Counted from the stretch's first letter, positions 4,657-41,040 are shown. The stretch: 64,000 nt of DNA from Sulfolobales archaeon (GCA_026419835.1 JAOAKQ010000002.1:142015-206014), one strand, 5' to 3'. Notes: generated by a model not told the origin, from the letters alone. Made by a program: numbers and translations.

Positions 4657-6654
4657 GTGCTTAAGGATTTGAGTGCAGGTATAAGCTCTGTCGAAGTATA
4701 CTGCTCGATGTCTGAGCGAGGCTCTCGGGAGCTCAAGCCTAAGCTGAGTATGACCTCCGTAGACTTAGCTGTAGTAGTTAGAGAGTTGAAGAGCTTGGGG
4801 AGCCGCGTTGTTAGGTCTGTACTCATGCCGACTAGGGACGTACTGATCTTCGAGCTAGTTGAAGGTAGTGATGTAGTGTATCTCGTAGTAGAGGGAGGTA
4901 GGAGAATACATACCTCTAAAAGTATATATACATCCGAATCCGTTGGAACGGCTAGACCTTTTAGAAAGCTCTTAGAGGGATCGAAGCTCGTCGACATCTC
5001 TCAAGTAGATTTCGAAAGAGTGGCTGTACTTAAATTCAGAAGGGGGGCGGCGGTCTACAGTCTCTACGTAGAACTCCTTCCCAGGGGGGTCATAGCCCTA
5101 GTTAACGACGAGGGGAGGGTCGTGGCGGTAAACAGGAGGTTTGTGGGTAGAGATAGGTCGGTAGCTGTAAGCCTCAACTACTCTCCTCCCCCACTCATCT
5201 CTAACTTCATGGAGTTGAGCGACGCGGAGGTAGCTAAGCTGGCTGAGAAGTTCGATGGAACTCTCGCGCAGTTTCTCGTCAGAGGCCTTGGAGTACCTCC
5301 TGAATTCGTTAACGAGGTGCTGAGTGAGAAAGAGAGGTCCGCTAAGCTATCCCAACTGGAGGTGGGCAGCCTACTCCAACTCCTAGGCAGAGTTCGCCAG
5401 TTCGTAGGTAGAACGATCGAGAGGCCTTCTCCATGCGCTATCTTAGTCGATGGGAAGCCGACCGGTTTCTTCTCCTTTAAACCATCTGGGATCCCCAGTG
5501 GCGCTAGAGTAGCTGGGTTTAGCTCTATGAATGAGCTCCTGGACTACTACTTCAAGTACCTGGACGAGGCTACCCTAAGAGAAGCGGAGCTGGCGAGAAT
5601 CCGGGAAGCGGAGGCGGCTATTGAGAAGACACTGCGCGAAGCTGAGGAGAACCTAGAGAAGATCTCGAAGAGGTTAGGTGAGGTTGGGGGTGCTCTAGGT
5701 CTTTTGGAGAAGTACTACTACGAAGTCGAGACCGCCTGGTCTTGCTGTAGAAGGGTAGTTAAGGAGAGAGGGTGGGAATACGTCGGTGAGTGCGGTGTTG
5801 TTGGTGCTGACCCTAGGAGGGGGTTAGTAAGGATCCAGCTACCCGGTGGTGCGCTGGAGCTTCAACTCCACAGGGACGTTAATCAGCTGTACAGCGAGTT
5901 GAGGCGGGAGTACGACCACCTGAGCGAGAAGCTGAATAGAGCTAGAGAGACCGTGAAGGACCTAAGAGCTAAGCTGGAGGAGGTGACTCAGCGTAAGCGT
6001 GCGCTCGAATCGCTGAAGCTAAGACCTAGGAGAACTGCGTGGTTCAGTAGGTTCATCTGGATCGAGACGTCAAGTGGTTTTCTAGCTATTGGGGGTAGGG
6101 ATGCTTCTCAGAACGAGCTGATCGTGAGGAAGTACCTCAAACCTAAAGACATATTCATGCACGCAGACGTTCACGGAGCTTCCGCTTTCGTCGTACTCAC
6201 CGGCGGCGCTGAGGTGCCTGAGAAAGATCTGAGAGAGGTGGCCGGCCTAGCGGCCTCCTACAGTAAGGCGTGGAAAGCGGGACTGAGCTCCGTAGACGTC
6301 TTCTGGGTTCGGGGTGAGCAGGTGGGGCTTTCAGCACCTCCAGGTGAGTACCTACCCAGAGGTTCCTTCATGGTGTACGGTCAGAAGAACTTCATAAGAA
6401 ACGTTGAGCTCATCCTAAGCATAGGGATAGCGTACCTAGGCGACTCGTACGACTTAGTGGTCGCACCACCGGAACTAGCGGAAGCTAGGTCGGAAGCTAG
6501 TGTAACTATAGCTCCCGGAGATACGAGCGTGGAGCTAGCTGCGAGAGAAATTAGGGAGTACTTAGTTCAGAAGTGCCCCGACGTTCGCGGTCTCACAGTG
6601 CGCGATATAGCTAAGGTGCTCCCAGGTAGGGTTAGGGTAGTTAGCAAGAAGTAG
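4657..6654 (+). CDS. NFACT-family protein (archaeal Rqc2/NEMF/FbpA homologue, ribosome quality control)
   Basis: Has an N-terminal NFACT-N-like region, a long coiled coil, and the NFACT-R/DUF814 motif GGRDASQNELIVRKYLKPKDIFMHADVHGASAFVV. The likely true start is ATG 4750 (MTSVDLAVVVRELK...). Confidence 0.8.
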   Translation: MLKDLSAGISSVEVYCSMSERGSRELKPKLSMTSVDLAVVVRELKSLGSRVVRSVLMPTRDVLIFELVEGSDVVYLVVEGGRRIHTSKSIYTSESVGTARPFRKLLEGSKLVDISQVDFERVAVLKFRRGAAVYSLYVELLPRGVIALVNDEGRVVAVNRRFVGRDRSVAVSLNYSPPPLISNFMELSDAEVAKLAEKFDGTLAQFLVRGLGVPPEFVNEVLSEKERSAKLSQLEVGSLLQLLGRVRQFVGRTIERPSPCAILVDGKPTGFFSFKPSGIPSGARVAGFSSMNELLDYYFKYLDEATLREAELARIREAEAAIEKTLREAEENLEKISKRLGEVGGALGLLEKYYYEVETAWSCCRRVVKERGWEYVGECGVVGADPRRGLVRIQLPGGALELQLHRDVNQLYSELRREYDHLSEKLNRARETVKDLRAKLEEVTQRKRALESLKLRPRRTAWFSRFIWIETSSGFLAIGGRDASQNELIVRKYLKPKDIFMHADVHGASAFVVLTGGAEVPEKDLREVAGLAASYSKAWKAGLSSVDVFWVRGEQVGLSAPPGEYLPRGSFMVYGQKNFIRNVELILSIGIAYLGDSYDLVVAPPELAEARSEASVTIAPGDTSVELAAREIREYLVQKCPDVRGLTVRDIAKVLPGRVRVVSKK

Positions 6655-18563: not shown

Positions 18564-18748
18564 ATCTAGAATGTGTGGGTCTCGCTGATCTATCCCACCT
18601 AACAACCGATATGCCAAGCGGCCTCCCCTTAGATAGGCAGACCTTACTGAATGCTGAGTGGTGAAGGAGGGTATGTACCGCAGATACTCTGTGAGGCACC
18701 TCCATAGCTCTAAAAACTTATAAGTACCTCTAAGCTAGTTGAATTGGT

Positions 18749-18787
18749 AGCCGGGTCGTCTAGCGGCCAAGGATGCGGGGCTCTGGA
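18749..18787 (+). tRNA. tRNA-Gln (anticodon CUG) 5' half only (positions 1-38): split-tRNA half or truncated relic
   Basis: AGCCGGGTCGTCTAGCGGCCAAGGATGCGGGGCTCTGGA gives an acceptor 5' strand, a complete D arm, an anticodon-stem 5' strand and the loop CTCTGGA. No matching 3' stem, T arm or acceptor 3' strand in the next 250 nt. TATA-like ttataag centred about 28 nt upstream. Confidence 0.6.
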
Positions 18788-19257
18788 CTTCGGCTGCTGC
18801 CCCCCACTTCCTTAACTTTCTCGATAACTCTTACGTACTCTATTCTAGTGTGAGGATACTGCCCTTCTTCAGTTTTCTCGTACTTCTTCACCATGTCCCA
18901 TACTGTGAGTAGAGCTGTTGTAGTTCCCACCAGGGCCTCCATTTCAACACCAGTTCTAGCCACAGTCTTGACCACTGTTTCAACTCTCACACCATCTTCA
19001 CCCAGGATCTCTATAGCTACATCTACGTGAGTTATAGGTATGTTGTGACATAGAGGTAGTAGTTCCGGAGTTTTCTTAACGGCTGAGATAGCGGCTATCT
19101 TAGAAACCGTGAAGACATCCCCCTTCTCTATCTTCCCTTCTCTAATGAGCTTTATAGTTGAAGGAGATAGTTTTATTACACCCTCAGCTCTAGCCGCCCT
19201 AACGACCTCGTCCTTACCTCCTATATCGACCATTCTCACGGACATCTCGGTAACCAA
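18760..19257 (-). CDS. moaC: cyclic pyranopterin monophosphate synthase MoaC
   Basis: MVDIGGK..., LPLCHNIPITHVDV and GVEMEAL motifs. The likely start is an internal ATG (19245 or 19233). The last ~9 codons overlap the tRNA-Gln half on the opposite strand. Confidence 0.85.
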   Translation of the reverse strand: MVTEMSVRMVDIGGKDEVVRAARAEGVIKLSPSTIKLIREGKIEKGDVFTVSKIAAISAVKKTPELLPLCHNIPITHVDVAIEILGEDGVRVETVVKTVARTGVEMEALVGTTTALLTVWDMVKKYEKTEEGQYPHTRIEYVRVIEKVKEVGGSSRSPEPRILGR

Positions 19258-39496: not shown

Positions 39497-41040
39497 AGAA
39501 TCTTCCTCAGAAACTCGAGGTCCTCCCCCACGGAGCTCGGCACTCCGCTCCGCGAGAACCTAGCTAGTTCGTACAGCTTACTCAATCTTCTTAAAGCCGC
39601 TGAGGTAACTCCATCAATACGCGACTCCAGCCTCTCAACTACTTCGCGGTGCGTCTCGGACGGCAGGATCTCTATTTTAACAACTGCCGCCAGGTGCGCC
39701 ACAGCCTTCCAGAAGAACTCTACCACCGGGTGCTGACCCGCGGTAGAAAGCGCTCCAGCGTCTCTACTCAACACAATACCGAAGCGCGGGAACCTCCTCG
39801 AGCTTCCGCGGAGTACGTAGGGGTACAGGAACCCGATTGAAGCGGCAGCCAGTAGCAGCGCGGCAACCGCGCCCAGCCCTAGAGAATCGCCGGAACCCCC
39901 CGAGGAGGGGGTGGTGCCCTCCCTAGCTAGAGGCCTACCCCTACTCTTGCTTAAGCTGAGGGTAGCTCTATCTATTGCTTCTATAGCCGATTTCAGTACG
40001 CGCTGAGGTACCTTATCCACTAGCCTATCTATATCGTGCTGAGCTACTCTCTCACCTACATCCTCTACGCTAGAGCTACCTCCAGAGCTACCTCCACCCG
40101 GGGTTCTCTGAGGAGAGCTCTCTCCACCTAGTGAGTACCTAAGCACGTCCTCTTCATCTAGACCCGCTAGGAGTCTGCGGACTTCGGTGAGCGTAGATAC
40201 GTTGATGCTATCTATTCTACGTAGTACTAGATCTAGGTTTTCAATACTACCCACAACTTCGAGTAGCTCCAGGATCTCCGAGATGCTGTGCTTAGCTAGG
40301 ATTTCGTCCAAGTTGATGTCGTACCTACTGAGTGCGAGCACTAGCTTCTCGACAGCTTCCTCCGAGATCTCTACGTACCTAGAGCTAGTCCTGAGCTTCG
40401 TGGGCGGGTTCTCCAGGACGAGTACGAGAACTGTGCCGAAGAATATCGAGTTAGAGTTCAGCACTTCTTCAGCTACGCTCCTCGCTCTCTCCACGTTCCC
40501 GCTCTCTAGGCTGAGTCCGAAGTAGACTACCTCAGCAACTAGGTCTCTAAAGCACTTACTGGCTGTCAAGAACCTACTAACGTAAGCCAGGAGCTTTAGA
40601 AGAGAGCTGATTGAAGGCCTGCTCAGTACCTCCTCCACTAGGCCGTAGGGTACTCCACTGAGAACTAGACTCAATACGGACGCCGATAGGACTTCCCTAA
40701 GTGAGGCCGGCCGCAGCTCCCCCGCTCCGCCTAGGAGGAGCTGTAGGGCCTTAAAGTGGCTGCCCCCCATCGCGAGCACTCCTAGTCTAGAACCACTGAG
40801 GACCCCACCGATGCGAGCTTCGAGTAGTGAGCGCAGTTCTCCATCTGCGTACTCAGCGGACTTCGAGAACTCGAAGCTTACGTTAAAGCACCTCCCCACC
40901 CACGAACTCAGAATTTCGAGTGCGATAGCCTCCTTCAGGTACTCCTCCGGGGAACTACTTAAGTGCCTACTCAGCACTACCTGAGGAGCGGCTAGTAGTA
41001 GAAGAACCAGCAGTAGAACGGCTCTCGCTACCCACACCAC
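39469..41040 (-). CDS. DUF4129-like protein with N-terminal signal/anchor
   Basis: The C-terminal TM is followed by ...SETHREVVERLESR...LSKLYELARFSRSGV, which resembles the DUF4129 signature. Central Gly/Ser-rich linker. Confidence 0.55.
   Translation of the reverse strand: MVWVARAVLLLVLLLLAAPQVVLSRHLSSSPEEYLKEAIALEILSSWVGRCFNVSFEFSKSAEYADGELRSLLEARIGGVLSGSRLGVLAMGGSHFKALQLLLGGAGELRPASLREVLSASVLSLVLSGVPYGLVEEVLSRPSISSLLKLLAYVSRFLTASKCFRDLVAEVVYFGLSLESGNVERARSVAEEVLNSNSIFFGTVLVLVLENPPTKLRTSSRYVEISEEAVEKLVLALSRYDINLDEILAKHSISEILELLEVVGSIENLDLVLRRIDSINVSTLTEVRRLLAGLDEEDVLRYSLGGESSPQRTPGGGSSGGSSSVEDVGERVAQHDIDRLVDKVPQRVLKSAIEAIDRATLSLSKSRGRPLAREGTTPSSGGSGDSLGLGAVAALLLAAASIGFLYPYVLRGSSRRFPRFGIVLSRDAGALSTAGQHPVVEFFWKAVAHLAAVVKIEILPSETHREVVERLESRIDGVTSAALRRLSKLYELARFSRSGVPSSVGEDLEFLRKILWGVGSSLE

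Follow-up and report, generated by a model that had tools for sequence, protein, structure and literature searches.

A conserved 5'-half gene beside moaC points to a split, trans-spliced tRNA-Gln(CUG) in uncultured Desulfurococcales-like archaea

The stretch of DNA analysed here, referred to below as the window, covers 64,000 nucleotides of a Sulfolobales archaeon assembly (GCA_026419835.1, JAOAKQ010000002.1, positions 142015-206014). Between positions 18712 and 18805, it very probably carries the 5'-half gene of a split, trans-spliced tRNA-Gln(CUG). An earlier note on this DNA had proposed such a half, with a trailer able to pair with a separately encoded 3' half, and the proposal is borne out by orthologous halves and complementary leaders in relatives. 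What is observed directly is the layout of the halves, their conservation, their mutual complementarity, and the fact that, once joined, they match a real tRNA gene exactly. Judged from sequence, the Gln(CUG) split appears to possess every feature by which archaeal split tRNA genes are recognized; it appears to be a conserved trait of a whole clade of uncultured Desulfurococcales-like archaea, and would have arisen after this clade separated from its outgroup.

The 5' exon lies on the plus strand at 18749-18786 (AGCCGGGTCGTCTAGCGGCCAAGGATGCGGGGCTCTGG, read directly) and is delimited by its identity to relatives and to an intact outgroup gene. Its 38 bases represent tRNA positions 1-37, with one extra nucleotide in the D loop, and comprise the acceptor 5' strand AGCCGGG, a D arm (GUCU / AGCGGCCAA / GGAU), G26, the 5' strand of the anticodon stem (CGGGG), and the anticodon-loop nucleotides C32 U33 C34 U35 G36 G37, with the anticodon CUG at 18783-18785. 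The acceptor strand, D arm, and anticodon named in the earlier note can thus be read directly, and they are identical to those of the intact outgroup gene. The note had, however, extended the tRNA match to position 38 (18749-18787): positions 1-37 are correct, whereas A18787 is where the trailer begins, taking third place in the 5' splice-site bulge GG|A, and C38 belongs to the 3' half. The intron-like trailer spans 18787-18805 on the same strand and reads ACTTCGGCTGCTGCCCCCC directly after G37; the C-rich strand of the intermolecular helix is its segment 18788-18805 (CTTCGGCTGCTGCCCCCC). A GC-rich 14-mer after the break had also been noticed and is present (GGCTGCTGCCCCCC), at 18792-18805 rather than at 18790-18803.

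Upstream, an A-rich stretch resembling a transcription factor B recognition element and a TATA box form a putative promoter (AAAAACTTATAAG, 18712-18724, plus strand, motif match only), in which the TATA-like ttataag occupies 18718-18724, 24 nucleotides ahead of nucleotide 1. The motif AAAnCTTATAAg is matched 23-26 nucleotides before nucleotide 1 in the window and in all orthologous 5' halves. Both the AAAnCTTATAA motif and the spacing equal those of the intact tRNA-Leu and tRNA-Ser genes of the window, the boxes of which (AAGCTTATAAT and AAACACTTATAAC) lie 23 and 26 nucleotides before the first nucleotide, respectively; the tRNA-Leu-like spacing pointed out earlier is therefore real.

ARAGORN and Rfam analyses report three intact tRNAs in the window (Leu-GAG, Ser-GCU, and Gly-GCC) and no tRNA at the 5' half, even at E = 10, an outcome to be expected of half a tRNA. 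The T arm and the CCCGGCT acceptor strand are absent from both strands of the whole 64-kb window when up to 3 mismatches are allowed, and a structure-aware scan admitting G.U pairs returns no 3' half on either strand, in agreement with the initial impression; the same scan of the window and of the related loci L001-L007 yields only candidates devoid of a T loop. Nor does the window hold a complementary leader, the reverse complement of the GC-rich 14-mer occurring only at its own site. Of the two best near-matches to a leader, at 5042-5055 (all pairs possible with G.U) and at 40755-40768, neither is followed by tRNA-like sequence. Near-matches to GGGGGGCAGCAGCC with at most 3 mismatches number 12 in the window against 4.8 in shuffled sequences (about 2.5-fold, none of 100 shuffles reaching 12), an excess for which codon usage or composition in GC-rich runs encoding Gly, Ala, and Ser is probably responsible.

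DNA fetched around MoaC homologs contains the identical exon beside moaC in five further complete lineages (loci L002-L004, L005-L006, L010-L011, L012-L013, and L014, where L010 and L011 are NCBI GCA_038831605.1 and GCA_038831375.1). A sixth relative copy (L008/L009) is truncated by the contig end, and its surviving part is identical as well. The exon is 100% identical in all pairwise comparisons, with 60-nucleotide flanks averaging 30% and 45% ungapped identity, and the MoaC proteins of six complete 5'-half loci from different lineages are 72-80% identical to that of the window; the 5' exon is evidently under purifying selection. All relative 5' halves have GGT directly before nucleotide 1, a TATA box about 23-26 nucleotides upstream, and AC directly after G37, followed by a C-rich trailer that varies between lineages (ACTTCGGTCGCCACCCCC in L010, ACGTCCGGTCGCCGCCCC in L002-L006, ACTCCCGGTCGCCGCCCCC in L012, ACCTCGGCCGCCGCCCCC in L014, and ACCTCAGCTGCTGCCCCC in L008). 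The gene order moaC, half, AsnC-type regulator, small open reading frame (ORF), and tRNA-Ser is common to the window, L010, and L014. In L031, an outgroup locus for MoaC, moaC is not accompanied by a tRNA. Mobile genes separate the half, on its promoter side, from the AsnC-type regulator in L002/L003 (13087-15023, a resolvase and a TnpB/Cas12f-like gene) and in L012/L013 (10665-12426, an IS200/IS605 Y1 transposase and a TnpB-like gene), and L002-L006 also have creatininase and chromate-transporter genes in this interval; the window, L010, and L014 are without such insertions.

In relatives, 3' halves are encoded on contigs of their own. The earlier note had advised searching for the exact leader (GGGGGGCAGCAGCC); run on species-representative genomes as GGCAGCAGCC followed by a 3' half, this search found nothing real, its one match being a chance alphaproteobacterial sequence without tRNA features. 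Such an exact scan is uninformative because real leaders use G.U pairs, as illustrated by GGCAGCGGCC in L022. A metagenome scan in which the leader could vary as G.U pairing permits, and in which YCCCG, a T loop, and CCCGGCT had to come next, identified seven stand-alone 3' halves, for an expected number of chance matches that we estimate to be far below one. All seven loci exhibit a TATA box (aaCGCTTATAAGtt), a spacer of about 20 nucleotides, a leader GGGGCGGCGGCCGAG(G)CGGGAGAA, and then the 3' exon, laid out as C-CCCCG-UGAC-CGGGG-UUCGAAU-CCCCG-CCCGGCU-ACCA (exact sequence CCCCCGTGACCGGGGTTCGAATCCCCGCCCGGCTACCA). The promoter, the GGAG motif, the paired T stem, the A73-CCA end, and the lack of a 5' half upstream are features beyond the scan pattern. 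Three more 3' halves (L022, L024, and L026), also with complementary leaders, were reached by synteny, using DUF1512 homologs and leaving the leader unconstrained. The first of these belongs to a 1.4-Mb contig of NCBI GCA_033581075.1 (leader GGGGCAGCGGCCGAGCGGGAGAU) and the other two to ERZ6864471 (leader GGGGCGGUGGCCGAGCGGGAGAA). In all 3' halves the promoter motif AAAnCTTATAAg is matched about 20-25 nucleotides before the G-rich leader, and in the seven loci of the metagenome scan the half is convergent with a small Cys-rich ORF of 88-96 residues that follows a DUF1512 gene; both of these genes are absent from the window. The 38-nucleotide 3' exon is identical in all nine distinct loci compared, the flanks of which are 41-43% identical, and so shows purifying selection as the 5' exon does. 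The relatives thus have their 5' halves next to moaC and their 3' halves next to DUF1512, and within a sample the two occur on separate contigs.

Joining the two exons at G37/C38 yields a molecule of 76 nucleotides that ARAGORN assigns as tRNA-Gln(ctg); its acceptor stem has seven Watson-Crick pairs, and its anticodon and T stems are fully formed. The outgroup has an unsplit tRNA-Gln(CUG) gene (L028/L029, NCBI GCA_964417765.1, DUF1512 60% identical), at L028 8973-9048, about 2.6 kb from the DUF1512 gene pair (Rfam, 55.1 bits). The joined halves and this gene are identical at 76 of 76 positions, and the 38 exon bases of the window are the first 38 of the outgroup gene, a match far beyond chance. 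Because the joined halves equal the outgroup gene, the junction is fixed: the exon ends at 18786, A18787 belongs to the trailer, and C38 is provided by the 3' half, so that the divergence at the canonical 37/38 position seen in the earlier note is upheld. In the outgroup, a 5S rRNA gene (L028 6434-6551; Rfam, 75.5 bits) directly follows the small Cys-rich ORF, at the place taken in the split clade by the oppositely oriented 3' half. Another 2.4 kb beyond the 5S rRNA gene comes the intact tRNA-Gln, on the strand opposite to that of the 3' halves, an arrangement which suggests that a local inversion or rearrangement accompanied the split.

Three pairs of halves derive from the same sample or run, namely L002 with L020 (ERZ1669249), L014 with L024/L026 (ERZ6864471), and L008 with L023/L022 (SRR15826899), L023 encoding the same DUF1512 protein as L022. 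In all three, trailer and leader form an outer helix of 14-17 base pairs, of which one or two are G.U, interrupted by no more than two mismatches; the observed duplex energy is reached by 1, 0, and 8 of 1000 composition-matched shuffled leaders, respectively. With the leader of L022, the closest sampled relative, the window trailer forms about 15 contiguous pairs, two of which are G.U (4 of 1000 shuffles reach the observed duplex energy), and the trailer (GCTGCTGCC) needs exactly the A found in this leader (GGCAGCGG). Despite their sequence differences, the orthologous trailers all remain C-rich and are able to pair with the leaders identified. In every pair a central helix of 4 base pairs is possible between CUCU (C32-U35) and GGAG, the latter being invariant, and the 3-nucleotide bulges G36-G37|A and A-A|C38 (A-U|C38 in L022) complete a bulge-helix-bulge (BHB) geometry. 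Archaeal tRNA splicing cleaves after the second bulge nucleotide, and cleavage at this point would give exactly the exons seen. For L002/L003 with L020, the strictly canonical hBHBh' structure has an energy of -49.3 kcal/mol, within 0.4 of the minimum free energy (-49.7 kcal/mol). Whole-molecule co-folding formed the trailer/leader helix and garbled the cloverleaf; the BHB was judged by local folds and explicit energy evaluation.

If we assume that the window half operates as these features suggest, its tRNA-type promoter would drive a short transcript made of nucleotides 1-37 and the C-rich trailer, as the motifs indicate. A second promoter-bearing gene located elsewhere, found as such in the relatives and predicted for the source genome, would produce a G-rich leader followed by nucleotides 38-76, including the CCA. 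According to sequence and folding of the same-sample pairs, trailer and leader would then anneal into a helix of 14-17 base pairs, bringing the exons together in a cloverleaf, while C32-U35 would pair with the leader GGAG to shape a BHB whose two 3-nucleotide bulges are GG|A and either AA|C or AU|C. By analogy with established archaeal tRNA splicing, a splicing endonuclease would cut both bulges and a ligase would join G37 to C38, and the expected 76-nucleotide product is the very sequence of the intact outgroup gene. The 3'-half leader of the source genome would resemble GGGGCAGC(A/G)GCCGA(G/A)..GGAGA(A/T), with a TATA box ahead, and a split genome would hold no contiguous CTCTGGCCCCCG.

Several points weigh against this assignment. 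Two of the three same-sample pairs, and the window/L022 pair, have an outer helix shifted by one nucleotide from the canonical register, so that the 5' splice site falls in a relaxed BHB and not in a strict one. Covariation is real but thin, amounting to one double change: between the second and third pairs, a trailer C to U is compensated by a leader G to A, and the remaining differences are absorbed by G.U pairs. The GC-rich leaders are largely interchangeable in predicted stability, so that a trailer does not consistently pair best with the leader of its own sample, which is not always the most stable partner. Provenance from the same sample is not proof of the same genome. Transcription, cleavage, and ligation of the halves are predicted from their sequences, and the 3' half of the window's own genome is postulated on the grounds of orthology. 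It is fairly likely, with appreciable room for doubt, that tRNA-Gln(CUG) is made in this clade only by trans-splicing, with no intact gene, and that the split is stable across a genus- to family-level radiation with its 5' half interlocked with moaC. No intact tRNA-Gln was found in any of the fetched split-clade loci, to which the search was confined.

The neighbour of the half is the gene of the cyclic pyranopterin monophosphate synthase MoaC, which is outside the tRNA system. As stated in the earlier note, the 3' end of moaC (minus strand, 19245-18760; Pfam MoaC, E = 2.4e-47) overlaps the half on the opposite strand, here by the last 46 nucleotides of moaC. The Pfam domain ends at ORF residue 148, near 18814, and the antisense of the trailer and tRNA exon encodes the last 17 moaC codons and the stop codon. 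These terminal 17 residues (KEVGGSSRSPEPRILGR, or ...GGSSRSPEPRILGR for the tail) are made up of GGSS from the trailer antisense and PEPRILGR from the exon antisense, the stop codon falling inside the D loop. The low-complexity residues that precede PEPRILGR (GGSS, GAAA) are trailer-encoded in the window (18760-18810), L002-L006, and L012-L014. The tail PEPRILGR followed by a stop is common to the MoaC proteins of seven relatives (66-79% identical), while two further relatives (P0004/P0019) read the same DNA in a different frame and have a longer MoaC tail; a 101-residue MoaC fragment (P0050) matches the window MoaC at 100%. The tail looks like a read-through into the tRNA half after a rearrangement that placed the half beside moaC.

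This overlap bears on the idea that the element is a functional stand-alone small RNA, for instance an antisense regulator of the convergent moaC mRNA, and not a tRNA precursor. The element has its own promoter and lies opposite the last 46 nucleotides of moaC, an overlap retained in most lineages. The overlap is dispensable, however, since the moaC genes of L010/L011 stop short of the trailer. There, trailer and exon are non-coding and still conserved, and MoaC coding therefore cannot be the constraint on the exon, which is the antisense of a non-domain tail, read in a different frame in P0004/P0019. A stand-alone RNA also fails to explain the existence of a conserved 3' half with a pairing leader and an exon completing the same tRNA. 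We regard this explanation as very unlikely, although an antisense side effect on moaC could coexist with trans-splicing.

The earlier note had itself offered another alternative, namely that the element is a dead relic, a tRNA-Gln fragment left by the integration or excision of a mobile element or by rearrangement, with an intact copy elsewhere doing the work. IS200/IS605-type and resolvase genes do occur near the half in L002/L003 and L012/L013, and such an intact tRNA-Gln(CUG) copy may exist, its absence being established for the fetched loci only. A relic would nevertheless be hard to reconcile with an exon that is 100% identical in at least six other lineages despite near-saturated flanks and that keeps a tRNA-type promoter at the right distance, or with the separate, promoter-bearing, and complementary 3' half that is itself 100% conserved. 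Unlike an attachment-site scar, the half has neither a second copy nor an adjoining integrase in the window, where local synteny is stable, and neither exon is found in 2.9 million viral contigs scanned for an origin as a phage attachment site. A relic is thus most improbable. A long cis intron, with the 3' half near the 5' half, would recall Aeropyrum pernix and Thermosphaera aggregans, in which the halves are only about 160 nucleotides apart on the same or opposite strands (PMC3218864), but it is next to inconceivable here, since no 3' half exists on either strand of the window (which extends 18 kb from the half in one direction and 45 kb in the other) or within 10 kb of the 5' half in L002-L006, ARAGORN reports no tRNA-Gln in L010, L012, and L014, the 3' halves lie on other contigs beside a DUF1512 gene that the window lacks, and moaC fills the DNA immediately downstream of the half.

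The split, trans-spliced tRNA-Gln(CUG) can be compared with the known cases, which are rare, come from a handful of heat-loving archaea, and numbered 29 split tRNA genes with 12 anticodons in seven genomes in a 2014 review (PMC4033280). The closest is tRNA-Asp(GUC), split at 37/38 in A. pernix and T. aggregans (Chan, Cozen and Lowe 2011, PMC3218864), which shares with the present case a Desulfurococcales-type host, the 37/38 position, a tRNA-type promoter on each half, a GC-rich leader of about 20-30 nucleotides on the 3' half, an hBHBh'-type junction, and the status of a late (derived) split, as relatives have unsplit genes. It differs by its isoacceptor, by halves about 160 nucleotides apart instead of on different contigs (none within 18-45 kb in the window), by its restriction to single species as compared with at least seven lineages here (MoaC identity to the window down to 66%), and by the lack of a protein gene overlapped in antisense by the 5' half. 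tRNA-Lys(CUU) of Staphylothermus marinus and S. hellenicus (PMC3218864) belongs to the same broad order, and has halves kilobases apart and a split kept between related species with stable synteny; yet it is a different tRNA, split at 30/31 rather than 37/38, in two species rather than a wider clade.

Nanoarchaeum equitans has six split tRNAs, including Gln(UUG) at 32/33 (Randau et al. 2005; PMC3218864, PMC4390854), with distant halves and a GC-rich complementary trailer and leader (12-14 nucleotides or longer) as in our case; its joined halves are cut by a heteromeric splicing endonuclease. In contrast, its Gln isoacceptor is UUG, with a different split site, and its host is a reduced symbiont of another phylum, whereas the helix described here uses G.U pairs and an occasional mismatch. 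Lastly, Caldivirga maquilingensis, known for split and tri-split tRNAs (Fujishima et al. 2009; reviewed in PMC4033280; see also PMC3218864), is a free-living crenarchaeon whose trans-spliced tRNAs likewise come together by pairing of leaders and through BHB motifs, but it belongs to the order Thermoproteales, splits other tRNAs, and has shared exons and three-piece genes that are not seen here. No Gln(CUG) split is recorded in the 2011 list, the 2014 and 2015 reviews, or a 2019 tRNA-half search, and no paper on the assemblies involved was found in the open-access literature. Gln(CUG) is thus an isoacceptor new to these lists of split tRNAs, and the present case also stands apart by how wide a clade shares it, how distant its halves are, and how it interlocks with moaC.

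Split tRNAs are central to the debate on whether tRNAs originated in two pieces or were divided at a later time, and the latter is favoured here by an intact outgroup gene with the same sequence as the spliced product. If the assignment holds, this nucleotide-identical gene would place the Gln(CUG) case among the most cleanly dated late tRNA splits, spread over many lineages and not over one or two species, and the interlock with moaC could lock the arrangement in place or couple the expression of both genes. As ARAGORN and Rfam miss both halves, genomes of this clade will appear to be without tRNA-Gln(CUG), next to a moaC tail that looks spurious.

The surroundings of the 3' halves contain genes related to tRNA, perhaps by chance. 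In L022, a gene of the catalytic-type splicing endonuclease EndA (PF01974 and PF02778) lies 2.7 kb from the 3' half, with related genes in L024 and L026. Pfam analysis of L022 (8296-18676) and of the equivalent L024/L026 regions reports Pus10, Trm56, a splicing endonuclease subunit, and a class Ic (Glu/Gln-type) synthetase within 8 kb, and in L017 (4733-7955) gatE and gatD, encoding the Glu-tRNA-Gln amidotransferase, are immediately upstream of the 3' half. ARAGORN also reports genes of about 90 nucleotides labelled 'tRNA-???' (anticodon calls cata and tc) in L022 (9804-9893), L024 (5803-5892), L026 (5804-5893), and L028 (8800-8892), with Rfam tRNA scores of 60-64 bits; these are probably intron-containing tRNAs, located just upstream of DUF1512 or, in the outgroup, of the intact tRNA-Gln.

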